From a bacterium (GTDB lineage Bacteria; Patescibacteriota; Dojkabacteria; JAOAGR01; JBAXGO01), in assembly GCA_037139335.1 (NCBI GenBank), contig JBAXGO010000002.1:851-64850 (forward strand): 64,000 nucleotides of DNA, read 5' to 3'. Of the stretch, positions 14,163 through 42,087 are shown piece after piece (positions within the stretch are counted from its first letter, which is position 1; each line of letters starts with the position of its first letter). The notes under the pieces were generated by a model, which did no database searches, was not told the DNA's origin, and worked only from the letters and a program-made list of their open reading frames with translations. The translations under genes and the position numbers were made by a program.

Positions 14163-15008
14163 CTATCTAACATAAACTAGAAAAGCGCTATACGAAACAA
14201 ACAATACTACCATTGCAAAAAGCTGCTTATCCGAAAAAAACATAAATTCAGGTTTTTCACCTTTTGATTCTGTTTCAACGATATAATAATATCTAAATAA
14301 TATAAGCGTAAACAACACAATCGAAGGCATATGTAATAAGCCTAAATTTATTGAATAAGTAGTAAATGCAGTAATTGTAATCCCAAGACTAATTAATAAT
14401 AATGAATGTAGAAATTCTGGTGTATACTTTTTTAAAACAAATCTAGTTTGATTATTTCTAATTTCACAATATCTCTTGGAAATAATTAATATTAACGATC
14501 CAAAAAAAACCGTTGTAAAAAGCCACCCAGAGACTGAAATATCTGTTGCAGCAGATCCACTATATAAGCGAAATAAATACATTCCAGAAACGAATATAAT
14601 GTCCCAAAGCGCTATTTTTTTCAAATAAAACGTATATAACAAATTTGTTATTAAATACGCAATAAGTATTAAAACGATTTTGTAATTATAAACATATACA
14701 CTTAGTAAAGCATCAGAAATAAAAAAGAATAAAATAAGTAAATACGCTTCCATATTGCTTATTTGACCTGATGCTAGTGGACGATTTTTCTTTGATGGAT
14801 GTTGTCGGTCTTCTTCGACATCTTTTATATCATTTATTAAGTAAACAATACTAGCTGTAAAAGAGAATAAAATAAAAACTAAACTAGATATAAATAAATT
14901 TTGTGAAGTAAAAATTGCTCCTCCAAAAAATATAGGAAAAAAGATTATCAAATTTTTTATCCAATGATGGACTCTAATTTCTTCAATTATACTAAATGTT
15001 TTATTCAT
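14163..15008 (-). CDS. UbiA-family prenyltransferase, decaprenyl-phosphate phosphoribosyltransferase (DPPR synthase)-like
   Basis: N-terminal HWIKNLIIFFP, Asp-rich motif NDIKDVEEDRQHPSKKNRPLASG and ~8 TM helices are present. Confidence 0.55.
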   Translation of the reverse strand: MNKTFSIIEEIRVHHWIKNLIIFFPIFFGGAIFTSQNLFISSLVFILFSFTASIVYLINDIKDVEEDRQHPSKKNRPLASGQISNMEAYLLILFFFISDALLSVYVYNYKIVLILIAYLITNLLYTFYLKKIALWDIIFVSGMYLFRLYSGSAATDISVSGWLFTTVFFGSLILIISKRYCEIRNNQTRFVLKKYTPEFLHSLLLISLGITITAFTTYSINLGLLHMPSIVLFTLILFRYYYIVETESKGEKPEFMFFSDKQLFAMVVLFVSYSAFLVYVR

Positions 15009-16101
15009 AATTTTTAAATAACTTTCCCCATCTATTTTTCTTAATCCATGTTTTATAAATCTTATTATACTTTCTAGGCCACATTATTTTATCGTGATAA
15101 ATTTCTGACGCAAATATAAATAGTTTAACTAGAGGTGTTCGGAAAAATAATTTTTGGGTACTTTTCAATGGTCCAAACCAAAACATATCTCCACCAACAC
15201 GTTTTACTAAATTTTTGCCAACCTCAAAATGCCAATTTTCTTTCATAACATCAATATCTCCAACAATTTCAATTTCATCCATAATTCCTGTACCTAAACC
15301 GAGTTCCGTACCAAGTTGAATATATTTAATCCCCATAGGATCAAATCCCATAAGTTTAGCGGCAACTGCGTCTATCGCAACTTGATCAGATGATGCAAGA
15401 ATTATACCTTTGTCTTCCGGAGTCATGGTTCTAGGCCCAGGTCCATTACCTGCCATTGTTCCATCCATTACTGCAAAAAGACCAGGATGAATTTCCTTTT
15501 GAATAGCTAGCAAATCGATTATGGTTTCATGAATGAAGGAATGAGTATAGTGTCGTTTGGTACTTAATAATCCGCCAAATGCGTTCTTAATAGCACCTGT
15601 AGTAGTTGTATAAATGTGACATTTAACTGTTGGCAAATGAACTATATTTTTTCCAACAAAATAATCTGGTATACGTATACCTTCTGGAAATATTTTATCC
15701 AATACAAGCATCTTTGCTTTTGGTTTGTATATTATCCATTTCATATCTTCTTTTTCACCAATTTTGAAATTGAATAATACAGGAATTTTATATTTTTTAA
15801 ATATTGAAACATATTTATTAAGATCTTCACCAAGAAAGGCATCTGTAACAACAGTTTTGTTTTGAACAGCCACAATATCGTTAAAACCATTTTCATTCAA
15901 ACTCTGAATTGTCCCCTCTAACTGCCAAGGAGTCGTATTTGCAGCAGGCATTGGCATATGCCAAGATATATTGTCTTTTAAAATAGTAGTCTTTGTTTTA
16001 TCTAATGTTTCATTAACTCCTGCAAGGAGCAGTAGTTTTTTATAGTCAGCAAGGACTGTTTCCGGTTTAGTTCTCAATACTGCAACTTTTGATTTAACCA
16101 T
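15001..16101 (-). CDS. Hypothetical protein (DUF362-like)
   Basis: 366 aa soluble protein. The assignment is weak. Confidence 0.3.
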   Translation of the reverse strand: MVKSKVAVLRTKPETVLADYKKLLLLAGVNETLDKTKTTILKDNISWHMPMPAANTTPWQLEGTIQSLNENGFNDIVAVQNKTVVTDAFLGEDLNKYVSIFKKYKIPVLFNFKIGEKEDMKWIIYKPKAKMLVLDKIFPEGIRIPDYFVGKNIVHLPTVKCHIYTTTTGAIKNAFGGLLSTKRHYTHSFIHETIIDLLAIQKEIHPGLFAVMDGTMAGNGPGPRTMTPEDKGIILASSDQVAIDAVAAKLMGFDPMGIKYIQLGTELGLGTGIMDEIEIVGDIDVMKENWHFEVGKNLVKRVGGDMFWFGPLKSTQKLFFRTPLVKLFIFASEIYHDKIMWPRKYNKIYKTWIKKNRWGKLFKNYE

Positions 16102-16105
16102 AATA

Positions 16106-16546
16106 TTATTTATTATCTATTTTTTTGAATACAAAATATTTGTACATAACGAAGCTCCAAAACATCTGGAATGTCGTTGAAACTATTTTAGCAACTGGAG
16201 GAATTAAACCCAAATTTGAAAACATTCCATATAAGATTCCATTGAAGAATACAAGATTTATAGAATGTACAAATAAAAATTTCCATGCTTGATGCAGAAT
16301 ATTACCTTCTTTATGATTAAAAGACCATATTCTTTGTAAACCAAAATTAAATATAATACTAATAGATGCAGATATTATGTTTGCAGTTGAAAATAATCCA
16401 AAAAAGAATGGATTAAACTTCAATACATAAACTTGATAATTAAGAATTAAAAAATCTATTAAAACAGCTGTTGCTGATATGATAAAGAATCGTAAGAATT
16501 CATAAGTAAAAATAGTATTTTTTATTTTTATGGCTTTCTCCTTCAT
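16106..16546 (-). CDS. GtrA-family membrane protein (polyprenyl-P-sugar translocation associated)
   Basis: 146 aa with 4 TM. N-terminal LRFFIISATAVLIDFLILN is typical of GtrA. Confidence 0.6.
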   Translation of the reverse strand: MKEKAIKIKNTIFTYEFLRFFIISATAVLIDFLILNYQVYVLKFNPFFFGLFSTANIISASISIIFNFGLQRIWSFNHKEGNILHQAWKFLFVHSINLVFFNGILYGMFSNLGLIPPVAKIVSTTFQMFWSFVMYKYFVFKKIDNK

Positions 16547-18249
16547 TTCCCCAAATATAGTATGTTAAATAAATCATTTTGAGTCATCTTACCTTCATTT
16601 TTCAAAATATATACAGGAGAATGATCATAAACTTGAAATGATTCATCCGCAGCATTATCGTTAATTTCCCAAGGGCCAAGACGTGGATATGAAGTAATAT
16701 GCTGTACAACTGTATAACCTAATTTGCCGCTAAATAATTTATCATAATATTTTGACATTATTGGATATGCAATTTCATCTTCTCTAGGTATTGAATCAGT
16801 CAATCTCTTACTAGCAATTATCATGTAATCTCCTTTTGACAATGTTAGTGCCATCTCTCTGTATTTTTGATCAGTTTCAGCATCATATCCTTTCACTTGT
16901 GCAAATCTATATTTTCCAGGAAATAATCCCGGCAAGGCATGCGGTAAGGAATAATCCCAATGTTCAGTAACGATGTTGCTTCCTGCAGGAACATTATAAT
17001 AAACCCATTCTGTGGTTGTCCTCCAAGTATGTTCATTCGTGTATACCGACATATACATAAATGCCCAAATAAAGGGAATAAAAAGAACAATAAAGACAGG
17101 AATAATTTTGAGTCGAACATCTTTGATATATTCAGTAATTTTTACAGTAAACCATGCAGCACCTATAATTATTACTGGTACAAGCGGCAATGTATATCTC
17201 ATAAACTTTGTATATTGAACTCCGATGTACAGAAAAAATAATATACAAAATAATAGTATTGGAAAGGCCTTATATTTTTCTTTTTTAATAAAGATAGAAA
17301 ATAACCACCAAATAATACCTATGAATCCAATCGTTGGTATAATGAAACTTAAAGACCAATTAAGATTATAAAACTGATACCAAAATGGTTCTGTATTAAA
17401 ATATTGAACAGTATAAGGAACAGGAATAGTTCCTGATACCATACCGTTTTCATATTTCAAAGCATCCATAAATTTATCAAATTTTAATAGCGAATATGGA
17501 CTAGAAAGAAACGCAAATGTAAATGTTATAGCTAAAAAATAAATTCCTTCTATAATATAATTTAATCCATGTGTGAAAAGTTTTCTCTCTCTTTTGACAT
17601 CTTCCATAAATTTAACAAAGATAGTTAATGCTGGAATTATCAGAAAAAAAGCACCTGTCATTTTCGTTCCAATAGATAGTCCTGAAAAAATAGCTGCTAA
17701 TAGCCAATACATTTTTTTATTACTTTCTATAATTTTTATAGAAAAAATCATTACTAACAATAGAAAAAATATTAGTGCTGTTTCTGTAACTATGTAATGA
17801 GCATGCTGAATAAAGATTACAGAACATGCCGCAATAAATGCAGATATTAATGCAATTCTTTTTCCTTTTAGCATTTTAGCTAAAATGTATATAAGAATTA
17901 TTGTTGCGGTAGATAAAGTAGCTGAAACAACACGACCAATCAATGTTATTTTGACTATATCGCTTAGCCAAGTTGGATCATTTGTAACCACAGAAACAAC
18001 TTGTACAACAGCCCTATCCATATATGGAGCAAAAGAATTATACGAATAAAACTGAGGATCTAGTTTATCTGGAATAGAAATTTTGGAAACCATGTTTGCA
18101 ACTGTAATTTCATCAGGATGATAAAAATAGCCTCCATCCCATTCCAAATTATAAAATCTGAATATTCCTCCCATAATCACTATGATAAACATTACCCATA
18201 ATGAAAAATATTTTGATTTAATTAACGAAGAATTAAGTATTTTTTTCAT
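16543..18249 (-). CDS. GT-C fold membrane glycosyltransferase (PMT/ArnT-like, GT39/GT83-type)
   Basis: 568 aa with ~11 TM. HPDE acidic motif in the first extracytoplasmic loop and a C-terminal soluble domain are present. Confidence 0.6.
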   Translation of the reverse strand: MKKILNSSLIKSKYFSLWVMFIIVIMGGIFRFYNLEWDGGYFYHPDEITVANMVSKISIPDKLDPQFYSYNSFAPYMDRAVVQVVSVVTNDPTWLSDIVKITLIGRVVSATLSTATIILIYILAKMLKGKRIALISAFIAACSVIFIQHAHYIVTETALIFFLLLVMIFSIKIIESNKKMYWLLAAIFSGLSIGTKMTGAFFLIIPALTIFVKFMEDVKRERKLFTHGLNYIIEGIYFLAITFTFAFLSSPYSLLKFDKFMDALKYENGMVSGTIPVPYTVQYFNTEPFWYQFYNLNWSLSFIIPTIGFIGIIWWLFSIFIKKEKYKAFPILLFCILFFLYIGVQYTKFMRYTLPLVPVIIIGAAWFTVKITEYIKDVRLKIIPVFIVLFIPFIWAFMYMSVYTNEHTWRTTTEWVYYNVPAGSNIVTEHWDYSLPHALPGLFPGKYRFAQVKGYDAETDQKYREMALTLSKGDYMIIASKRLTDSIPREDEIAYPIMSKYYDKLFSGKLGYTVVQHITSYPRLGPWEINDNAADESFQVYDHSPVYILKNEGKMTQNDLFNILYLGK

Positions 18250-18250
18250 T

Positions 18251-18961
18251 TTAATTATTTGTAAATTTTAATTGAGTAATTGCCTTGAACATTGCGAATG
18301 AAGAACGAGATAATTTAACTTTTGAATGTGGTTTGTCTTCCCATTCTATAGGATATTCCAATATTGTAAACCCTTTATTTTTTACCTCAACTAATAAATT
18401 TACATCAAATGCCATATTCATAATTGATAACTGAAAAAGTATACTATTCATAACCTTTCTCGTGATTATCTTTGCACCACATTGAGTATCTTTAATATTC
18501 AATTGAAAATATATATTCACTATTAAATTAAAAACCCTACTAGTTATCCTTCTAATAATGGGTTGTTTTTTTACTATTGCACCTTTCAACCAACGAGATC
18601 CTGCTATACAATCAACTTTTTTCTCTATCATCTTATCAAATAATTTATTCAGTATTTCAGGGCGTATAGAATTATCGGCATCAACATAGGCAATATTATC
18701 AAATCTAGAATTTTCAAATCCTCGCATAATTGCACCACCTTTACCAATAGCTTCAGGATAAACTAAATATCTAGTTTTCAAATCGGATTGTATATATTTT
18801 TTAACTACAGCTTCCGTATTATCTGTACATCCATTTAAGATAACTAAGATCTCATAATTTTGAATGTCTGAGTTTTTATAATATTCTGTATATGATTTTA
18901 AAGTTTCATCAATTCGATTTTCTTCGTTATGCGCAGGAATAATTATTGATAAATTTTTCAT
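18251..18961 (-). CDS. GT2 polyprenyl-phosphate glycosyltransferase (DPM1/GtrB/ArnC-like)
   Basis: IIIPAHNEE, YVDADNS (DxD) and GSRW motifs are present. Confidence 0.8.
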   Translation of the reverse strand: MKNLSIIIPAHNEENRIDETLKSYTEYYKNSDIQNYEILVILNGCTDNTEAVVKKYIQSDLKTRYLVYPEAIGKGGAIMRGFENSRFDNIAYVDADNSIRPEILNKLFDKMIEKKVDCIAGSRWLKGAIVKKQPIIRRITSRVFNLIVNIYFQLNIKDTQCGAKIITRKVMNSILFQLSIMNMAFDVNLLVEVKNKGFTILEYPIEWEDKPHSKVKLSRSSFAMFKAITQLKFTNN

Positions 18962-19515
18962 TATAAATTAAGCCGTTTTTTTAATATATCTATAATTTCT
19001 GGAAAATCAAGTTTCGGCTTGTAAATACCAAAATGTTCTTGATCATTATATTCATAATACTCCGTATCAAGCATTTTATGAATATAACGGGCTTCTTCAA
19101 TTGGGATAAATGGATCATCAGTAGAATGAAATTGAGCAATCCATTTTTGATTATTCTTTATTAAATCCCATTTCCATTCATCATCATAGTATCCACTCAA
19201 TCTTTCTTCTTCGATTCCAAGATCTGTATAACATGCTGAAACTAGTATAGAACCTAATATTTGATGACTTTCAGCATATTTCATAGCAGCTACGGCTCCT
19301 GATGAATGACCTATTAGAATAGTATTTTCATCAACACCTAATTTATCTAAATATGGAAACCAATATTCTTTACGAGCTAATTCAGGATCTGGAAAATTCT
19401 TAATAACAACTTCAATTCCATAAACAAACATGTGTTCTTTAATATAATTAAACCATGATATTGAGGAGGTTCCTCCGCCATTTCCTGGAATCATTATAAT
19501 TTTAATATTACTCAT
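18961..19515 (-). CDS. Alpha/beta-hydrolase (RBBP9/YdeN-like serine hydrolase)
   Basis: GHSSG nucleophile elbow is present. Start moved to MSNIKII (19515), which overlaps the upstream stop in ATGA fashion. Confidence 0.55.
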   Translation of the reverse strand: MSNIKIIMIPGNGGGTSSISWFNYIKEHMFVYGIEVVIKNFPDPELARKEYWFPYLDKLGVDENTILIGHSSGAVAAMKYAESHQILGSILVSACYTDLGIEEERLSGYYDDEWKWDLIKNNQKWIAQFHSTDDPFIPIEEARYIHKMLDTEYYEYNDQEHFGIYKPKLDFPEIIDILKKRLNL

Positions 19516-19516
19516 T

Positions 19517-21238
19517 TCAGTTATATAAGATATTAAATAACTTGTCTTTAGGATAATGTTTGTCGTTTTTAAATATATATACTGTAGGATGATCAAATAT
19601 TTCAAAGGTCTCTTCAGCTTTTTCATCTGATAATTCTATCGGTCCTAAATGAGGATATGAAGATATTTTTTGTACAAGTGTATATCCAAGCTGTTCTTCA
19701 AATAATCTTGTGTAATATTTGCTAGTCAAAGGATATATTTTTGGTTGTTGACCTATAGAATTAACAAGTCTCTTACTTGATAAAATCATATAGTCCCCTC
19801 TAGCTAAATTATCTGACATAGTATCAAACTTAATTCTATTTTCTGGATCATAATTTTTCATTTCCAAAAAAGTATATTGCTTAGAGGGAAGCCCTTTAAT
19901 ACCATGAGGTAGGGAATAGTCCCAATGTTCTTTCAAAACAACACTCCCAGAGGGAATATTATTATAAATCCATTCTGATGCGGTAAATCTTGTTTGAGGT
20001 GTCGTGTAAATAGACATAAAAGCAATAACCCATATAATGGAGAACGAAACTACCAAAAGCAATAATATCTTACCAACCTTTTTGAATTTTATTGATGATA
20101 TTAATTTATCTATTAACCATGCAGATAATATTATAATAATCGGCAACATTGGCAACATATACCTAATAAATTTCGCATACCACCCCCCCGTATATACGAA
20201 ATAGAGGATACTAAATATTATCAACGGAAAAATATAAATAGTCTCTTTCTTTTTAATTATTAAAAAAAGACAAAGTAATATAGCGATGAAACCAACTATA
20301 GGAAGAATAATACTAGTATGCCACATCATATTAGTGAATGGATATACATATGGTAGTGTATCAAAAAATTGCCATGTATAAGGTACTTTAACAGTACCTG
20401 CAACCACACCACCTTCATACGTCATTGACGATTGGAATCTCTCAAGTCCAATCAAAGTATATGGCGACACAGCAAAAGCGATCACTGCGGTTACAAAAAG
20501 AAAACCTAGACCTTTGATAAAATGATGGATTAAAGCTAATTTATTTTTTCTATTTTTAAAAAAATTTATTAACCATACAGTACCAGGTATAGATAAAAAT
20601 GCTATGGAAGCTGTTTTTGAACCAATGGCGAGTCCACAAACAAGCGCCATGATACACCACAAATACGTTTTATTGCCTTTGATTAAATCAACTGATATTA
20701 ATGAAATCAGCATTAAAAAGAAAACTAGCATGCTTTCTGTAACTGAATAATGTGCATCTTGGATAAATCCCACGCAAAAAGAAGCTAATAATGCAGCAAA
20801 TAAAGCAGCACGTTTATTAAATACTTTGCGTGTAAATAAATATATTAAAATAATAGTTAATGTAGAAAAAATCGCCGAATATGTTCTTCCAATGATATTT
20901 ACTTTTGCAATATCAGTTTTCCATGTTATATCATTCGTAACAGTAGAAACTACTTGTGCTGTTCCCTTATATAAATAAATTGGAAAACCACCGTATGCAA
21001 AAAAATCTGGATCTAATTTATCGGGTATATTCACTTTATTGGCAGAAATCATCACATTTAGTTCATCTGGATGATAACTAAGTCCATTATCCCAATTCAA
21101 ATTGTAAAATCTGAAAAAACCACCTACTAATATTATTAGCAAAATTAGTACTAAGTGTGCTTTATCACTACTTAATTTCTTTATTATTAAACTATATATT
21201 TCTAGTGTTTTTTTAATAACTGGTTGAAGATCTTTCAT
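19517..21238 (-). CDS. GT-C fold membrane glycosyltransferase, paralog of 16543-18249
   Basis: 573 aa. Same architecture and HPDE motif. Clearly paralogous, with conserved YGGFP/YNSFAPY-type blocks. Confidence 0.6.
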   Translation of the reverse strand: MKDLQPVIKKTLEIYSLIIKKLSSDKAHLVLILLIILVGGFFRFYNLNWDNGLSYHPDELNVMISANKVNIPDKLDPDFFAYGGFPIYLYKGTAQVVSTVTNDITWKTDIAKVNIIGRTYSAIFSTLTIILIYLFTRKVFNKRAALFAALLASFCVGFIQDAHYSVTESMLVFFLMLISLISVDLIKGNKTYLWCIMALVCGLAIGSKTASIAFLSIPGTVWLINFFKNRKNKLALIHHFIKGLGFLFVTAVIAFAVSPYTLIGLERFQSSMTYEGGVVAGTVKVPYTWQFFDTLPYVYPFTNMMWHTSIILPIVGFIAILLCLFLIIKKKETIYIFPLIIFSILYFVYTGGWYAKFIRYMLPMLPIIIILSAWLIDKLISSIKFKKVGKILLLLVVSFSIIWVIAFMSIYTTPQTRFTASEWIYNNIPSGSVVLKEHWDYSLPHGIKGLPSKQYTFLEMKNYDPENRIKFDTMSDNLARGDYMILSSKRLVNSIGQQPKIYPLTSKYYTRLFEEQLGYTLVQKISSYPHLGPIELSDEKAEETFEIFDHPTVYIFKNDKHYPKDKLFNILYN

Positions 21239-37106: not shown

Positions 37107-37424
37107 ATGAGTTGTGATTCAACATCATCTCCAGTTCATACAACATTAGATGTTATTGGAGGAAAATGGAAACCTGTAATTTTGTGGTATTTATCGAAGG
37201 AAACAGTACGTTTCAATGAGTTAGGACGCTTGATAAATGGTATCACGCAAAAGATGTTAACACAACAATTACGTGAATTAGAAAAAGATGGATTAATCAA
37301 ACGAGTAGTCTATCCAGAAGTGCCGCCAAAAGTTGAATATTCTATTACTAAATATGGTAAAACGCTTGAGCCAGTTTTAAAAGCTATGGCTATGTGGGGA
37401 CAAAAGCATAAGAAAAGAAGATAA
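37107..37424 (+). CDS. HxlR-family winged-helix transcriptional regulator
   Basis: [15 protein letters not shown] is a hallmark of HxlR/DUF24. Confidence 0.8.
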
Positions 37425-37441
37425 TTTATTTACTAAAAAAT

Positions 37442-40126
37442 TCAATTCCATAAATTAATCATTTTTGCAGAATAGAAGGCTGTCGTAAACCAAGCCCAAT
37501 TTTGAGAATAATAGTCATTTTCATTACCCCAATATTTTTCATCAATTAAACTTGAAGCAAATCTATTTTCATAAATATTTCTAGCTATTTCTTTATTGTC
37601 AAAATATGTAGAAAATAATGCACCGCTCTCTGTACTCAAACTACTATAGTCAACATATTTATCTCCATTCAATTTATAAACAGCATATAGTTTTTTATCT
37701 TTTTCAATTGTGTTTTTATAAAAAGAAGAAATCTTTTGTAAATATATTTTTGCATTTGAGTTTTCATACCATTGCGCATCCCACGATAATCGTATGTTTA
37801 AGCGAAATGCGTCAAATCCATAAACATCACTTTTGTTATCATCAGCTTTTAAATAGTTTTCGTTAGTTGTGACGATAAACCAGTCTGGTAATAAATATGT
37901 ATTATTATCAAAAGTGTGTAAGGAAACTACTTTATTAATAATCGTATAAACGTCATCAGCAAGTTGATTCCATGGATGTTCTTTATCAATATTAGAAAAT
38001 ATTCTATATGATGCAGGTGAGAAATATGAAGGATTTATTAAATAATTTCCATTAATTTCTGAATTGGCTCTCGATGTCATGTAATACGTTCCATTAATTT
38101 GTACTGCTTCCTTAGTCCAAATGTCATTTATTATATTTTTCGCTAAGCTATAATACCTTTGATCTCCCCATTTTTTATATGCGAATAAAAGACTTAATGC
38201 TATGTCTTCATCAGAATCTGATGCTGATGAAGTATCAAGTATATTCAAATTTCCTAAATTATCAGTACCATAAACCCATGAAAATAAATTCTCCTCTTTT
38301 CTTTTTAAATTATTTAGAGACCATCGTAAAACCAAATCAAAATATTCTTTATCATTCATATAGACAGACCTTAATAGAGAATAGGCTTGCCCTTCTGATG
38401 TAGTTCTATTATTTTGCTCTGGATCTATTGTTCTGCCTTCAGACAAAATAAATTTTCCTTTATACCAATTCCATGTAGAGTTCAAAATATTGCTTTTATT
38501 ATTTACCGCCCTTATTTCTACAGGATAATCTTGACCTGATAAGTTATTTTCTTCAAATTTTTTTATAATTATTGAATTCTCATAAGCACTTTGTACAATT
38601 GGCATTTTTTCTTTCATTACAGTATCGTGAAATGCCGGTGTAACAATCAAATAGTCTATATTTTGCCAATCATTTTTCAATACTACATTTTTAATTTCGG
38701 GATCATTATCAACCTTCCAATAATATTGAGCTTTCACTTCCTGTATATCTTTTGTAGATTTATTGAGATCCAAAAATGCATAATTATCAATAACAATTAT
38801 TGATTTTTCATCTATATTATTTTTCACCCATTCTATCGCACTATTTTGATTATTTGTTTGTGCTAAAGTAAAAATATCTTTTGAGACTATCAATTCGAAA
38901 CAGAATACTGATAATAAAAAAGTTATAAATACAAATTTGAATATATAAGGAAAAAAAATTTTTTTATTTATAATAAATTTGATAAATTCAGAATAAAACA
39001 AACCAATATTTATAGCACTTAAAGGTATTATTGGTAACATATACCAATCTAATGTTTGTGCATAAAGTAAATATCCTATATATATTATTGAAAGAAAACT
39101 AAAGAATAATAAATATTTTTTTCTGAATATTATGTTTAATATTGTTATTACTGGTATTAAGATAATAAGATATGGATCAAATTTTAACCATGTATTCCAT
39201 AAAGATAATTCAAATGTACTATCTGTCGATAAGAAAAAGCTCCCATTCCTAGATGATTGAAAGGTAAAAGCTTCTAATAAACTTACATGAGGTGCATTAC
39301 CTCCAAAGATAGTTCCAGAAGGAAATAATTCACCACGTAAAAAAGCAAATACTGGATATAGTGATATTAGAAATAATGAAACTCCGCCCCAAATAAACGC
39401 ATTATATTTTTTATTTATTTTATCTGAATTAATTATGACAAAGATTAAAATTATAGGAAAAAATATTATTGCAGATTCTTTTGATAACACGGCAGCACCA
39501 AATAATATTGACGAATACGCCATATTTTTTATTGATGATTTATGAATCAAAAAATATAAGGATGCTATTAAAAAACAAACCATGATGTTATCAAGAAAAA
39601 CTCTTCTTTGTAGAATTATTCCAAGAGGTGATAATGTAAAAACAAGTGAAGCTAACACGGCGGCATCTAATCTTTTTGTAATTTTTTTTACAATTTTAAA
39701 AAGAAAATATATAGTTATAATGTGAAGAATTAGCATCAAGACCCGTCCAGAATTTATTGAAGTACCAAACGCATAAAAACTTCCTAAAATGATATTCCAA
39801 AATCCTATTACTAACCAACCAAAAGGTGAGTGATCATACCAATATGTATATGGTGCCAATTTACCATCGCTAACTACTGACCATGCTTGAGACATGTATG
39901 TTCCTTCATCTTCCCTATATGACGGATATCCAAACATATTTGCACCATGAACAATAACAGCAATTATTATTACGAAAATTAAAATAATTGAACTTTTATG
40001 TATATTTAAATATTTGAAAATGTTGGCTAATAAATCTTTTTTTTGTATGAAAGCTTTTGAAGATAATATAATTTTATTTACTCTTTGTAGAAGTAAATGA
40101 AATTTTTGTTTTAATAATTTATTCAT
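37442..40126 (-). CDS. Fusion protein: N-terminal GT-C-like polytopic membrane domain + C-terminal glycoside hydrolase family 8 domain
   Basis: 894 aa with ~12 TM in the first ~420 residues and an YREDEGTY acidic loop. The C-terminus carries a GH8 signature ASDSDEDIALSLLFAYKKW (compare A-[ST]-D-[AG]-D-xx-[IM]-A-x-[SA]-[LIVM]-[LIVMG]-x-A-xxx-[FW]) and TSEGQAY. Confidence 0.65.
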   Translation of the reverse strand: MNKLLKQKFHLLLQRVNKIILSSKAFIQKKDLLANIFKYLNIHKSSIILIFVIIIAVIVHGANMFGYPSYREDEGTYMSQAWSVVSDGKLAPYTYWYDHSPFGWLVIGFWNIILGSFYAFGTSINSGRVLMLILHIITIYFLFKIVKKITKRLDAAVLASLVFTLSPLGIILQRRVFLDNIMVCFLIASLYFLIHKSSIKNMAYSSILFGAAVLSKESAIIFFPIILIFVIINSDKINKKYNAFIWGGVSLFLISLYPVFAFLRGELFPSGTIFGGNAPHVSLLEAFTFQSSRNGSFFLSTDSTFELSLWNTWLKFDPYLIILIPVITILNIIFRKKYLLFFSFLSIIYIGYLLYAQTLDWYMLPIIPLSAINIGLFYSEFIKFIINKKIFFPYIFKFVFITFLLSVFCFELIVSKDIFTLAQTNNQNSAIEWVKNNIDEKSIIVIDNYAFLDLNKSTKDIQEVKAQYYWKVDNDPEIKNVVLKNDWQNIDYLIVTPAFHDTVMKEKMPIVQSAYENSIIIKKFEENNLSGQDYPVEIRAVNNKSNILNSTWNWYKGKFILSEGRTIDPEQNNRTTSEGQAYSLLRSVYMNDKEYFDLVLRWSLNNLKRKEENLFSWVYGTDNLGNLNILDTSSASDSDEDIALSLLFAYKKWGDQRYYSLAKNIINDIWTKEAVQINGTYYMTSRANSEINGNYLINPSYFSPASYRIFSNIDKEHPWNQLADDVYTIINKVVSLHTFDNNTYLLPDWFIVTTNENYLKADDNKSDVYGFDAFRLNIRLSWDAQWYENSNAKIYLQKISSFYKNTIEKDKKLYAVYKLNGDKYVDYSSLSTESGALFSTYFDNKEIARNIYENRFASSLIDEKYWGNENDYYSQNWAWFTTAFYSAKMINLWN

Positions 40127-40127
40127 A

Positions 40128-41522
40128 CTATTTTTGCAACTCAGATAAAGGTATATTCATCTCATCTATTTCGTGCTGTCTGTGTGCATTAGTATGTTTT
40201 GTTTTTTCCCAACTGTTATTTTTTTTCAAATTTCTAAATATAGCTCTCATAGCACAGTAACTCAAAATTACTTGATAAGGAAAAAAAGTTAAAACTATAT
40301 TGAGAGGAACAAATATCGAATACTTAATTTTATACTGAGTTGTAAATTCATAAAGTCCTATATTATAGATTGCAATTTGTATAATTAAAATATACAAAGG
40401 TAGGATGGAAATTAATGCGATTGTTAGCGGAATTTTGACCATTATTATCATAAAAATAGAAAAGGGAATATAAACTAAAAAGAGTGCTTGAGCACGAGAA
40501 ATAGTTAATATATACAGTGCTAATATTTTATGAGTAAAGCTTGGTAATTTTTTCCATTCTTTTTTGTTTAAAACTTGTATGAAACCCTGTATCCAGCGTG
40601 TCCTTTGTTTTATAAATTGTTGTAAATCTGGAGGAGTTTCTTCTCTGGTTGCATGTTCTTCATCATATATTACATTTATCTTAGCCCCAATTTGACTTAA
40701 TCTAATACCAATATCCGCATCTTCTGCAAGACATTTAGGATCCCAGCCTCCTACTTTTTTTAATGTTTCTCTTTTAAAAAAAATTGTATTTCCCCCTAGG
40801 GGTATGACACCTTGATTTGCAAAAAATGGTAGCGACGATTTAAACCAAAAATAATATTCCAATACATTGAATACAGAAAACCAATTTGATTTATAGTTCA
40901 TTAACTGAACACCCGACTGAACTACATCTGATTTTTTTTGAATCATAACTGTATTTATAATTTCATATAGCTTTTTGTGAGGTTCATCTTCAGCATCAAA
41001 AACAGCTATAACATCATTTTTCGCATATTGAAGCGCATAGTTGAGAGCATGTGGTTTATTAATAGGTGGTTCAGAATAAATATGAAGACTTATATTTCTT
41101 TTCCCAATTTCTTTTATAACATCATTCACTTTATGAATTGTTCCTTTATCATCATCGGAACAAATGACGATAATCTCTTTCATATGCTCGGGATATACCA
41201 TATTTGAGACTGCAAGAATTGTATCTCTGATTACTACTTCTTCATGTCTTACAGGAATTAAAGCTGTGAAAGTTAATAAAGGCGAAATAATTTTTTTGGG
41301 AGATTTAAATCGCTTCATTTTTTTTGGACTATCCCAAGCATAGAGCATTAAAAAAATAGCAAATATTCCTTGAACTGTTAACAATAATGATACAATTAAT
41401 ACACAAATAACCAGCAAAGAATTTAACCTATTTCCCAGATTCTTATAAAGTAAGAGAGAAGTTACGATAATTATAAAACTAATTATTAATGTTGAAATAA
41501 CTTTCTTAAATCTTTTATTCAT
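40128..41522 (-). CDS. Processive family-2 glycosyltransferase (cellulose/chitin/PNAG-synthase-like, QxxRW)
   Basis: 2 N-terminal TM, a GT-A domain with CSDDD, DAED, AEDAD and QRTRW motifs, then 3-4 C-terminal TM. Stop overlaps the start of the GH8 fusion gene. Confidence 0.75.
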   Translation of the reverse strand: MNKRFKKVISTLIISFIIIVTSLLLYKNLGNRLNSLLVICVLIVSLLLTVQGIFAIFLMLYAWDSPKKMKRFKSPKKIISPLLTFTALIPVRHEEVVIRDTILAVSNMVYPEHMKEIIVICSDDDKGTIHKVNDVIKEIGKRNISLHIYSEPPINKPHALNYALQYAKNDVIAVFDAEDEPHKKLYEIINTVMIQKKSDVVQSGVQLMNYKSNWFSVFNVLEYYFWFKSSLPFFANQGVIPLGGNTIFFKRETLKKVGGWDPKCLAEDADIGIRLSQIGAKINVIYDEEHATREETPPDLQQFIKQRTRWIQGFIQVLNKKEWKKLPSFTHKILALYILTISRAQALFLVYIPFSIFMIIMVKIPLTIALISILPLYILIIQIAIYNIGLYEFTTQYKIKYSIFVPLNIVLTFFPYQVILSYCAMRAIFRNLKKNNSWEKTKHTNAHRQHEIDEMNIPLSELQK

Positions 41523-41535
41523 TTAATTGAAATAT

Positions 41536-42087
41536 TTAATTTATTTTTCGATTGTTTTTTTTAGTATTATTAAAACTTTTATTGTCTTTATTATCATTAT
41601 TTCCAAAATTCTTTTGGTTATTTAATGATGATTCATTATTTTGAATATTTTTAGATTTAGTAGTATTGACATCAGTTACAGGATTAAAAACAGTTTGTTT
41701 ATTAATACTAACTTTTTCTGCTTTTATGTTGATTTCATTTTGAACGTCAAACTGTGTTTTTATTTCATTTAAAATTTGTTTTTTTTGCAAATCGTTAATT
41801 TGACTAATAGTCGTTGAATATTTATCTATATATGATGTTTTTTCTGATGCTTTGATATTTGATATTAAAAATAATCTAGAGAAAGAGCCAATAAATAAAA
41901 TTGCTAAAAGTATTAATAATGAATTACGAATGAATTTACGATTAATATAATTTACAACAATATAAACTATGAATGTAAATAACAAGATAAAACCATACTC
42001 TCTTATGATTAGTAATAATAATATGAAACCAGTGGTAAATAAAATGTATGGATGCTTTAATGTATTTATTAAACTATTCATTGGCAA
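41536..42087 (-). CDS. Membrane protein (3 TM) with coiled-coil and Asn/Lys-rich tail
   Basis: 183 aa. First gene of the GT2/GH8 operon. Confidence 0.4.
   Translation of the reverse strand: MPMNSLINTLKHPYILFTTGFILLLLIIREYGFILLFTFIVYIVVNYINRKFIRNSLLILLAILFIGSFSRLFLISNIKASEKTSYIDKYSTTISQINDLQKKQILNEIKTQFDVQNEINIKAEKVSINKQTVFNPVTDVNTTKSKNIQNNESSLNNQKNFGNNDNKDNKSFNNTKKNNRKIN

Follow-up and report, generated by a model that had tools for sequence, protein, structure and literature searches.

Synthase-dependent secretion of a beta-glycan together with a Z-type hydrolase is a known arrangement. The operons bcsA-bcsB-bcsZ, ccsA-ccsB-ccsZ and cslA-glxA-cslZ share the order synthase, membrane partner, hydrolase (PMC11022532). 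A locus with this order and a different kind of partner lies in a stretch of 64,000 nucleotides (nt) from a bacterium of the Dojkabacteria (Patescibacteriota; assembly GCA_037139335.1, contig JBAXGO010000002.1, positions 851 to 64,850), referred to here as the window. Three minus-strand open reading frames (ORFs) lie head to tail there, at 41536-42087 (183 amino acids, aa), 40128-41522 (464 aa) and 37442-40126 (894 aa). The second encodes a family 2 glycosyltransferase (GT2) of the processive synthase type, and the third a GT-C glycosyltransferase domain fused to a GH8 domain (GT-C::GH8). There is, in our judgment, an even chance that this module is the minimal form of a widespread, uncharacterised synthase-dependent surface-glycan system with an active GT-C partner; the pair probably makes, decorates and trims a surface beta-glycan. 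What would be new is the kind of partner and the built-in link to lipid-linked glycosylation.

The window locus resembles Bcs in its gene order, in a membrane GT2 of the BcsA fold with the D, DxD, ED and QxxRW motifs, and in an endoglucanase of BcsZ type (GH8, TM-score 0.85). It is unlike Bcs in having no PilZ domain, FxVTxK loop or BcsB, and in that the partner of the synthase is a GT-C enzyme with the GH8 fused to it. The GT2 also scores under the CelA and BcsA equivalog cutoffs, and the GH8 under that of BcsZ. The operon neighbours of the synthase are the 183-aa protein, which belongs to no family, and the GT-C fusion, and no BcsB-like family recurs in the best 79 loci of at least 594 relatives, the neighbourhoods used throughout. 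The lack of PilZ and BcsB, which a first-pass annotation made from the sequence alone had pointed out, was confirmed for the operon.

In Escherichia coli, secretion needs the hydrolytic activity of BcsZ and not the BcsZ protein itself, and BcsG is a lipid-donor-dependent modifier recruited to BcsA (PMC11379886). BcsG is like the partner proposed here in being a polytopic membrane enzyme at the synthase that modifies the nascent glucan outside the membrane from a lipid donor. However, it is a phosphoethanolamine transferase of the alkaline phosphatase type, unrelated in fold and chemistry to a GT-C glycosyltransferase.

Streptomyces CslA-GlxA-CslZ (with LpmP; apical) likewise joins a Gram-positive or monoderm synthase to a non-BcsB partner and a cellulase (PMC11022532, PMC9040799). 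In some relatives the GT2-GT-C pair has GlxA-like oxidases and GH6 enzymes, the family of CslZ, as its neighbours; probes for both, run by tblastn, gave no match in the window. Identity between CslA and BcsA is given as 27%, and CslA is described as having a gating loop and part of a PilZ domain, whereas the window GT2 is shorter, has neither of these and carries a WEKTxH motif. No GT-C partner is mentioned for the Csl system in the parts available (PMC11022532, PMC9040799).

The three-component systems (GtrABC, CsbB-GtcA-YfhO, GacI-K-L) are similar in another way – many related loci combine a GT-C that has a catalytic loop with GtrA and a synthase like dolichol-phosphate mannose synthase (DPMS) or ArnC. 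Unlike those systems, these parts are fused or joined in the present family to a processive synthase and a glycoside hydrolase, and in the window the GtrB-like and GtrA-like genes lie outside the operon, beside other GT-C genes. The PgaC/IcaA synthases of poly-N-acetylglucosamine (PNAG) are the best NCBIfam match of the GT2 (TIGR03937) and have a similar size and transmembrane layout; the KEGG-style automatic name 'XagB' is used in JGI annotations of the family. In contrast to the PNAG systems, there is no PgaD/IcaD or PgaB/IcaB deacetylase in the operon or the related loci, and the hydrolases associated with the module (GH8, GH6, GH5) act on beta-1,4 and not beta-1,6 linkages.

The GT2-GT-C gene pair across phyla

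Full-length homologs of the 894-aa protein form at least 261 clusters, with 36-48% identity and the same PMT/PMT_2 plus GH8 architecture. Those with a named source are almost all from Patescibacteria (the candidate phyla radiation, CPR), and full-length fusions also occur in Chloroflexota and Dormibacterota among the best 79 loci. In a scan of one genome per species, at least 594 species genomes carried relatives. An architecture that the first-pass annotation did not know is therefore no one-off; it belongs to a large family that has been automatically annotated and is uncharacterised.

In 62 of the 69 informative loci the gene immediately before GT-C, in the same orientation, is a GT2 homolog (33-57% identity); in three more the homolog is one gene or one tandem paralog away. 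The window proteins were compared with the loci by tblastn, and the neighbouring ORFs were clustered all-against-all. Among the 1115 ORFs clustered, the GT-C family was present at 77 loci, the GT2 family at 71 and the next commonest at 7, so that GT-C and GT2 are the only two families common to most loci. The gaps between the two genes are mostly -11 to +5 nt. In the window the gap is 1 nt: the TAG stop codon of the GT2 gene is followed by a single spacer nucleotide and the ATG of the 894-aa gene. The pair is found in Patescibacteria, Chloroflexota, Dormibacterota and Actinomycetota.

The hydrolase may be a fused GH8, a fused GH3, a separate gene or absent. GT-C proteins with no hydrolase domain are still paired with GT2 in Anaerolineae (loci L037, L048, L051), Streptomyces (L065), Dactylosporangium (L068), Arthrobacter (L069, L072, L073) and Pseudonocardiaceae (L074). 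GH8 is a separate gene in a Dormibacterota locus (L054) and in L059, and in Mycobacterium and Microbacteriaceae a weakly GH8-like gene lies downstream in another frame. GH3 takes the place of GH8 on the same GT-C at L041:9677-12313 (192 bits) and L053:9983-12409 (143 bits). Since the GT-C occurs with GH8, with GH3, with a separate hydrolase or with none, the hydrolase is an exchangeable accessory on a conserved GT-C, and the conserved core is the GT2-GT-C gene pair rather than GT2-GH8. Of the synthase-GH8 pairing put forward in the first-pass annotation, the synthase stands as a conserved partner; the core partner across genomes is the GT-C and not the GH8.

Several loci depart from the simple pair. 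A weak GT-C::GH3 fusion is seen at L063:2537-4810, and tandem GT-C::GH8 paralogs follow a single GT2 at L017:6918-12583, L018:7308-12619 and L005:9962-14726. A second, chitin-synthase-like GT2 lies downstream of the fusion at L014:12642-13955 (Chitin_synth_2, 76 bits), L012:13016-14329, L023:9071-10450 and L080:17046-18308. Many loci with the gene content of CPR (L002, L009, L014, L016, L019, L020, L023-L025, L032, L034, L041, L063) come from metagenome-assembled genomes (TPA_asm) titled 'uncultured Gammaproteobacteria', 'Bdellovibrionales' or 'Pseudomonadales bacterium'; these titles are probably placeholders or errors.

The only database labels for the family are 'glycosyl hydrolase family 8', 'glycosyltransferase' and 'XagB'. 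Full-text searches of the literature yielded no description of a GT-C::GH8 protein or a GT2-GT-C synthase pair, and nothing relevant on CPR cellulose synthases or on combinations of GT-C, GtrA and a synthase. A large protein search with the Streptomyces ORF returned no matches. The Actinoplanes gsf cluster (PMC13390465) was considered as a published match and set aside as a different cluster that has no GT-C.

Predicted structures and active sites

The synthase (40128-41522, minus strand) has two N-terminal and about four C-terminal transmembrane helices. It matches the Pfam families Glyco_tranf_2_3 (113.6 bits, the hidden Markov model that had been proposed as a check) and Glyco_trans_2_3 (87 bits). 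Its AlphaFold2 model has a predicted local distance difference test score (pLDDT) of 86.3 and a predicted TM-score (pTM) of 0.84. The best Foldseek match is BcsA (4p00; E=1e-15, TM-score on the query 0.65, root mean square deviation 4.8 A over 452 columns), and the matches after BcsA (4p00/4hg6) are hyaluronan synthases (7sp9, 0.61 on the query) and PcManGT. About 450 of the 464 residues of the predicted model superpose on BcsA and hyaluronan synthase, transmembrane helices included.

The motif set of a processive synthase is complete, with all coordinates on the minus strand: DDD at aa 123-125 (41148-41156), the DxD-type motif DAED at aa 176-179 (40986-40997), the TED-like catalytic base ED at aa 267-268 (40719-40724) and the acceptor-binding motif QRTRW at aa 306-310 (40593-40607). 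The coordinates of DDD, DAED and ED were checked by translation. D176, E178, D179, E267 and D268 are invariant across 30 GT2 homologs, and QRTRW is present in 120 of 120. The model and motifs support the assignment, made earlier from the sequence, to the processive synthase class, with a predicted BcsA/hyaluronan-synthase fold and predicted polymerising activity.

Near the C-terminus is a family-specific motif, WEKTKH (aa 438-443, 40194-40211), which runs on to NAHR448 and ends 16 residues before the end of the protein. It is invariant in alignment A2 and present in 118 of 120 homologs, and the longer form W-E-K-T-x-H-x-x-A-H-R is kept from CPR to Chloroflexota, Dormibacterota and Actinobacteria. 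The GT2 has no FxVTxK motif, and we suspect that W-E-K-T-x-H is a candidate replacement of the gating loop.

Against NCBIfam, every equivalog score of the GT2 is far under its cutoff – 69.5 against 422.3 for TIGR03937 (PgaC/IcaA), 47.5 against 699.1 for TIGR03030 (CelA) and 34.7 against 992 for NF008558 (BcsA). The protein has no PilZ match in Pfam, no D/NxSxxG motif and a single RxxxR. That one, RAIFR (aa 426-430, 40233-40247), stands just before WEKT, and R426 and R430 are kept in at least 90% of 30 homologs. Streptomyces CslA is reported to retain this RxxxR half of the PilZ cyclic di-GMP (c-di-GMP) site (PMC11022532). Near the operon no riboswitch or other Rfam element was found. The absence of both a PilZ domain and a riboswitch leaves room for other regulation; c-di-GMP independence, raised as a possibility in the first-pass annotation, is speculative, and so is the suggested relevance to episymbiont attachment. 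One GT2 homolog, from Aggregatilineales (L051:7560-9938), carries an N-terminal FHA domain (57.8 bits), which suggests control of that synthase by Ser/Thr phosphorylation rather than c-di-GMP.

The 894-aa fusion protein matches PMT_2 (PF13231; aa 112-259) with 52.5 bits against a cutoff of 26.1, and GH8 (PF01270; aa 543-818) with 159.6 bits against 24 (E=1.4e-46); most of its homologs also match PMT (PF02366). Its AlphaFold2 model, built with 24 homologs, has a mean pLDDT of 87.2 and bears out the expected architecture of GT-C plus GH8. It shows a cytoplasmic N-terminus rich in K and R (10 K+R and 1 D+E), about 11 transmembrane helices to residue 416 or so, an alpha/beta domain at 417-545 and a GH8 barrel. 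Because the number of helices is odd and the N-terminus is inside, the GH8 would lie outside the cell. The GT-C membrane domain (aa 1-416) is encoded by 38879-40126, the extracytoplasmic alpha/beta domain, placed by the secondary structure of the model, by 38492-38878 and the GH8 (aa 546-894 and the stop codon) by 37442-38491, all on the minus strand. The unfused GT-C proteins (520-545 aa) stop at the end of the alpha/beta domain, which completes the GT-C unit. A GT-C-like domain of roughly 12 helices had been proposed; the GT-C part stood, and the helix count is nearer 11.

Whether the N-terminal domain is instead an unrelated transporter was checked, and by the PMT_2 match and Foldseek it is a GT-C. 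The Foldseek matches, to STT3 oligosaccharyltransferases, are weak (E ~1e-7, TM-score ~0.36-0.49). A profile search of PDB sequences with the domain gave no relative at a threshold as loose as E<=1, and in NCBIfam the only match was sub-threshold ('AZOBR_p60025 cell surface glycopolymer formation', 28 bits against 150). In the first extracytoplasmic loop is D73-E74 (39905-39910, minus strand), at what we take to be the site of the catalytic DE motif of PMT-type GT-C enzymes. Both residues are invariant in alignments A1 and A3, which include the unfused Anaerolineae and Arthrobacter homologs, and DEG is present in 120 of 120 fusion homologs (P0001-P0120). R128, R174, D179, K216 and E217, charged residues of the membrane domain, are invariant or nearly so across phyla. 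By its conserved residues the GT-C looks catalytically active.

The closest solved relatives of the GH8 domain by sequence are Clostridium thermocellum CelA (1cem, E=1.2e-26) and BcsZ-type enzymes; E-values for CelA and BcsZ are 1e-26 to 1e-24, compared with ~1e-10 for chitosanases and xylanases. The model has the (alpha/alpha)6 fold (TM-score 0.81-0.89 on GH8 structures, and 0.85 on the target with E=1e-16 for BcsZ 9b87/3qxf). The score against the BcsZ equivalog NF008305 is 134.9, under the cutoff of 299. CelA E95, D152 and D278 align to E578 (the acid, 38393-38395), D637 (38216-38218) and D772 (the base, 37811-37813); all three are present, and their coordinates (minus strand) were checked. 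The PROSITE-type GH8 signature (ASDSDEDIALSLLFAYKKW) is matched with one deviation, S638 where A or G is expected. The C-terminal GH8 and its near-perfect signature, both read from the sequence at first pass, are thus well founded.

Donor genes, the polymer and competing explanations

About half of the Patescibacteria loci have an upstream GT2 of some 700 aa, with an extra N-terminal domain of the polyprenyl-phosphate sugar synthase type. The best solved match of this domain is Pyrococcus furiosus dolichol-phosphate mannose synthase (5mlz, E=2e-35), followed by ArnC, and its NCBIfam matches are AglJ, ArnC, PpgS and PgfS. The DPMS-like domain is fused to GT2 in 50 of the 120 best GT2 homologs (42%) and is a separate adjoining gene at ten loci (L023, L037, L038, L039, L040, L045, L047, L049, L054, L065). 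GtrA is fused or adjoining at L017, L018, L022, L023, L036, L045, L049, L050, L065, L068 and L082. The arrangements include a DPMS::GtrA::GT2 triple fusion (L050), DPMS::GtrA directly after GT-C::GH8 (L045), the order DPMS, GtrA, GT2, GT-C (L049), GtrA directly after the fusion gene (L082), and DPMS::GtrA or GtrA directly after GT-C (L065 and L068). Two apparent fusions, GT-C::DPMS::GtrA (L065) and GT-C::GtrA (L068), were rejected, as frame analysis showed adjacent genes merged by spurious high-GC ORFs.

In total, DPMS-like or GtrA donor genes are fused to or adjoin the pair in about 40-45% of loci, and DPMS-like and GtrA genes are in cis in about 29 related loci. This network of fusions and adjacencies ties five activities into one pathway: synthesis of the donor, its flipping, transfer by the GT-C, processive polymerisation and hydrolysis of the beta-glycan. 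The GT-C is read as active rather than a passive anchor because the DE(G) loop is kept in all 120 homologs and donor genes are so often fused or adjoining, and the cis and fused DPMS-like and GtrA genes of the relatives suggest that it uses a polyprenyl-phosphate-sugar donor.

Two further features were seen among the donor genes. The long GT2 forms at L010:7766-9964, L011:7842-9959, L028:6833-8983 and L063:1-2514 have N-terminal regions of 320-470 residues without a Pfam match at E<1e-4; these regions may represent a novel domain, or a DPMS-like one that has diverged or decayed. A flavin amine-oxidase-like oxidoreductase (PF01593, 104.7 bits), often fused to GtrA, is beside the module in seven loci (L018:3280-5115, L022:5845-7623, L043:6609-8462; unfused in L017, L023, L036 and L038) and might modify the lipid-linked sugar, like an epimerase or oxidase.

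The window has its own candidates for donor supply, about 20 kb from the operon and on the minus strand: a GtrA-like flippase gene at 16106-16546 (GtrA_DPMS_TM, 58.1 bits), a GT-C gene at 16543-18249 (PMT_2, 47.8 bits) and a DPMS-like GT2 gene at 18251-18961 (Glycos_transf_2, 93.9 bits). Tblastn with the DPMS domain of the long GT2 form matched the window at 18287-18961. These genes possibly supply the lipid-linked sugar in trans, though their link to the module is inferred.

A mechanism can be proposed from these parts. On the cytoplasmic side the GT2 would use a nucleotide sugar to polymerise a beta-linked glycan, and it would thread the chain through its own membrane channel, as with BcsA and hyaluronan synthase. 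The GT-C, an obligate membrane partner made in a coupled fashion, would sit at the chain exit and move a single sugar from a polyprenyl-phosphate-sugar donor, at the outer face, to the emerging chain as a branch, decoration or cap. A beta-linked donor and an inverting GT-C, as in known systems, would give an alpha-linked branch. In the window, synthesis and flipping of the donor would fall to the DPMS-like and GtrA-like genes described above; in many relatives these steps would belong to genes fused to or adjoining the pair. The GH8, tethered outside the membrane, would cut the beta-1,4 backbone and so release, size or unjam the polymer, the role of BcsZ. What the analysis shows is the identity of the domains, their folds, the catalytic motifs and the conservation of both the pair and the fusions; the polymer, the GT-C acceptor, a physical complex of the two proteins and donor supply in trans are the conjectural parts of this scheme.

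Homology and neighbouring genes point to a beta-1,4-glucan, or something closely related, as the most likely polymer. A beta-1,4-glucan backbone is favoured because the GH8 is CelA/BcsZ-like, because GH6 and GH5 genes are neighbours and because GlxA-like oxidases occur at some loci. At L007, L011, L022 and L038 a GH6 gene directly adjoins the GT-C gene at its 3' end, and GH5 cellulase genes lie 2-3 kb upstream at L041, L053 and L059. Radical copper oxidases resembling GlxA are encoded beside the pair in Arthrobacter (L072, L073), Pseudonocardiaceae (L074) and a Saccharibacteria metagenome-assembled genome (L066). CslA, the cellulose synthase of Streptomyces, has as its partners GlxA and CslZ, a GH6 enzyme (PMC11022532, PMC9040799).

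Several observations weigh against a make-decorate-trim system of beta-1,4-glucan. The window operon has neither DPMS nor GtrA in cis, and about half of all loci are the same, which would fit a GT-C that needs no dedicated donor pathway or is mainly a structural partner. With no sequence relative in the PDB, its acceptor is not inferable by homology. The best NCBIfam match of the GT2 is a PNAG synthase model and not cellulose synthase, at a score far under the cutoff. GH8, GH3 and GH5 also include chitosanases and hexosaminidases, which act on polymers of glucosamine (GlcN) or N-acetylglucosamine (GlcNAc), and the polymer could contain either sugar. Finally, the base Asp of the GH8 (D772 in the window) is Asn in at least 15 of the 120 homologs (e.g. 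P0081, P0114, P0118, P0120), so hydrolysis may not be universal across the family; in some lineages the GH8 may, by this substitution, be inactive or use another base. The DEG loop, unlike this Asp, is never lost among the 120 homologs.

A different role for the lipid-linked genes is conceivable, although we think it unlikely. Here a DPMS-like enzyme would make a lipid-linked primer, the GT2 would elongate it, the GT-C would act as a ligase that transfers the chain en bloc to a protein, a lipid anchor or the cell wall, and the GH8 would set its length. Fusion of the DPMS-like domain to the synthase in 42% of homologs suits channelling of a substrate in the same leaflet, the extra domain matches AglJ, which starts a dolichol-phosphate-linked glycan, and the best structural matches listed for the GT-C are STT3 oligosaccharyltransferases. 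However, those matches are weak (TM-score ~0.36-0.49), the recurrent GtrA-type flippases, known for monosaccharide-phosphate-polyprenol, would be needless if the synthase exports the chain itself, and at L065, from Streptomyces, DPMS::GtrA comes after the GT-C gene and not after the GT2.

Somewhat more doubtful is the version closest to the first-pass annotation, in which the GT-C has lost its transferase function and is a scaffold of the BcsB or GlxA type that holds the GH8, the product being a plain cellulose- or chitosan-like homopolymer. It is true that the genes of all characterised bacterial cellulose systems come in the order synthase, non-homologous membrane partner, Z hydrolase (PMC11022532), and the lack of donor-making genes in cis from the window operon and about half of related loci also fits. 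A scaffold does not explain why the DE(G) loop and R128, R174, D179, K216 and E217 are invariant or nearly so across phyla, why many loci have DPMS and GtrA in cis, or why the GT-C is kept at loci that lack a fused hydrolase.

CPR bacteria live by fermentation and have many glycoside hydrolases, and several cellulase families cluster at these loci, as would suit a catabolic GH8 (GH3, GH5 or GH6 in relatives) that feeds on external cellulose, chitosan or host glycans beside a GT2 and GT-C of unrelated envelope glycosylation. This is very improbable, as a covalent fusion joins the hydrolase to a biosynthetic GT-C whose sole invariant neighbour is a synthase, the 79 neighbourhoods hold no recurrent sugar transporters or catabolic genes, and a synthase-plus-cellulase logic is established for Bcs and Csl systems (PMC11379886, PMC9040799).

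The active GT-C partner of a synthase is the reading we prefer. A bolder form of it, which we offer tentatively and hold to be possible rather than probable, is that the pair is a new class of glycan synthase complex, merging the synthase-dependent and the three-component lipid-linked pathways. Its GT-C, the obligate co-subunit, would branch a beta-1,4-glucan at the channel exit into a xyloglucan-like decorated cellulose, and this polymer would be a major part of the envelope, so far overlooked, in Patescibacteria, Chloroflexota, Dormibacterota and some Actinobacteria.

Neighbouring genes and meaning for the Patescibacteria

All four ORFs of the region, the three of the operon and a convergent HxlR gene, were found where the first-pass annotation had placed them. 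Public gene calls from two independent assemblies give the same genes; the deposited entry identical to the 894-aa protein is titled 'MAG: glycosyl hydrolase family 8 [bacterium]'. The G+C content of the window is about 29%, and a promoter and terminator scan was uninformative in such AT-rich DNA (48 sites, with 43 +/- 7 expected).

The small protein at 41536-42087 (minus strand; 183 aa, 181 aa in the public call) has three hydrophobic segments, in agreement with the three membrane segments first noted, and an N/K-rich tail. Its ORF ends 13 nt before the GT2 start codon, and the gene is probably co-transcribed with GT2. The protein has no Pfam or NCBIfam family match and no tblastn match in the 79 related loci, and upstream of GT2 in other loci there is no analogous conserved small transmembrane ORF. 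The first-pass annotation had counted it in the module; it is not a conserved neighbour, appears lineage-specific, and its membership is uncertain. The idea of a conserved PgaD/IcaD-like subunit is unsupported, as neither relatives nor analogues were found in other loci.

The HxlR-family gene (37107-37424, plus strand; HxlR 118.8 bits) is tail-to-tail with the 894-aa gene, and 17 nt separate the two 3' ends. It had been described as an adjoining regulator. As it is convergent rather than divergent, and tblastn found a counterpart in no related locus, HxlR as operon regulator was rejected; it is a neighbour only and outside the module. Like HxlR and the 183-aa protein, a class A penicillin-binding protein has no counterpart in the other loci.

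Window positions 14163-21238 (minus strand) form a second, separate glycosylation cluster. Besides the three genes at 16106-18961 it encodes a UbiA-family prenyltransferase (14163-15008), a DUF362 protein (15001-16101), a serine hydrolase (18961-19626) and a second GT-C paralog (19517-21238). The set of UbiA, GtrA and GT-C recalls the three-component systems of pentofuranose addition that PMC11127046 names in its title.

The Patescibacteria make up a large share of bacterial diversity. To our knowledge, almost nothing is known of their envelope polymers or of how episymbionts among them attach to hosts, and the module described here is among the few multi-domain, deeply conserved surface-glycan systems of the group. 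Its occurrence in cultivable Actinobacteria (Arthrobacter, Streptomyces, Microbacterium) opens it to genetics, and the family is a compact two-gene route to modified beta-glycans for biotechnology. If the GT-C is indeed a co-subunit of the synthase, it would be a fourth kind of synthase partner after BcsB, CcsB and GlxA, and the first case of a synthase-dependent exporter that has decoration with lipid-linked sugars built in.

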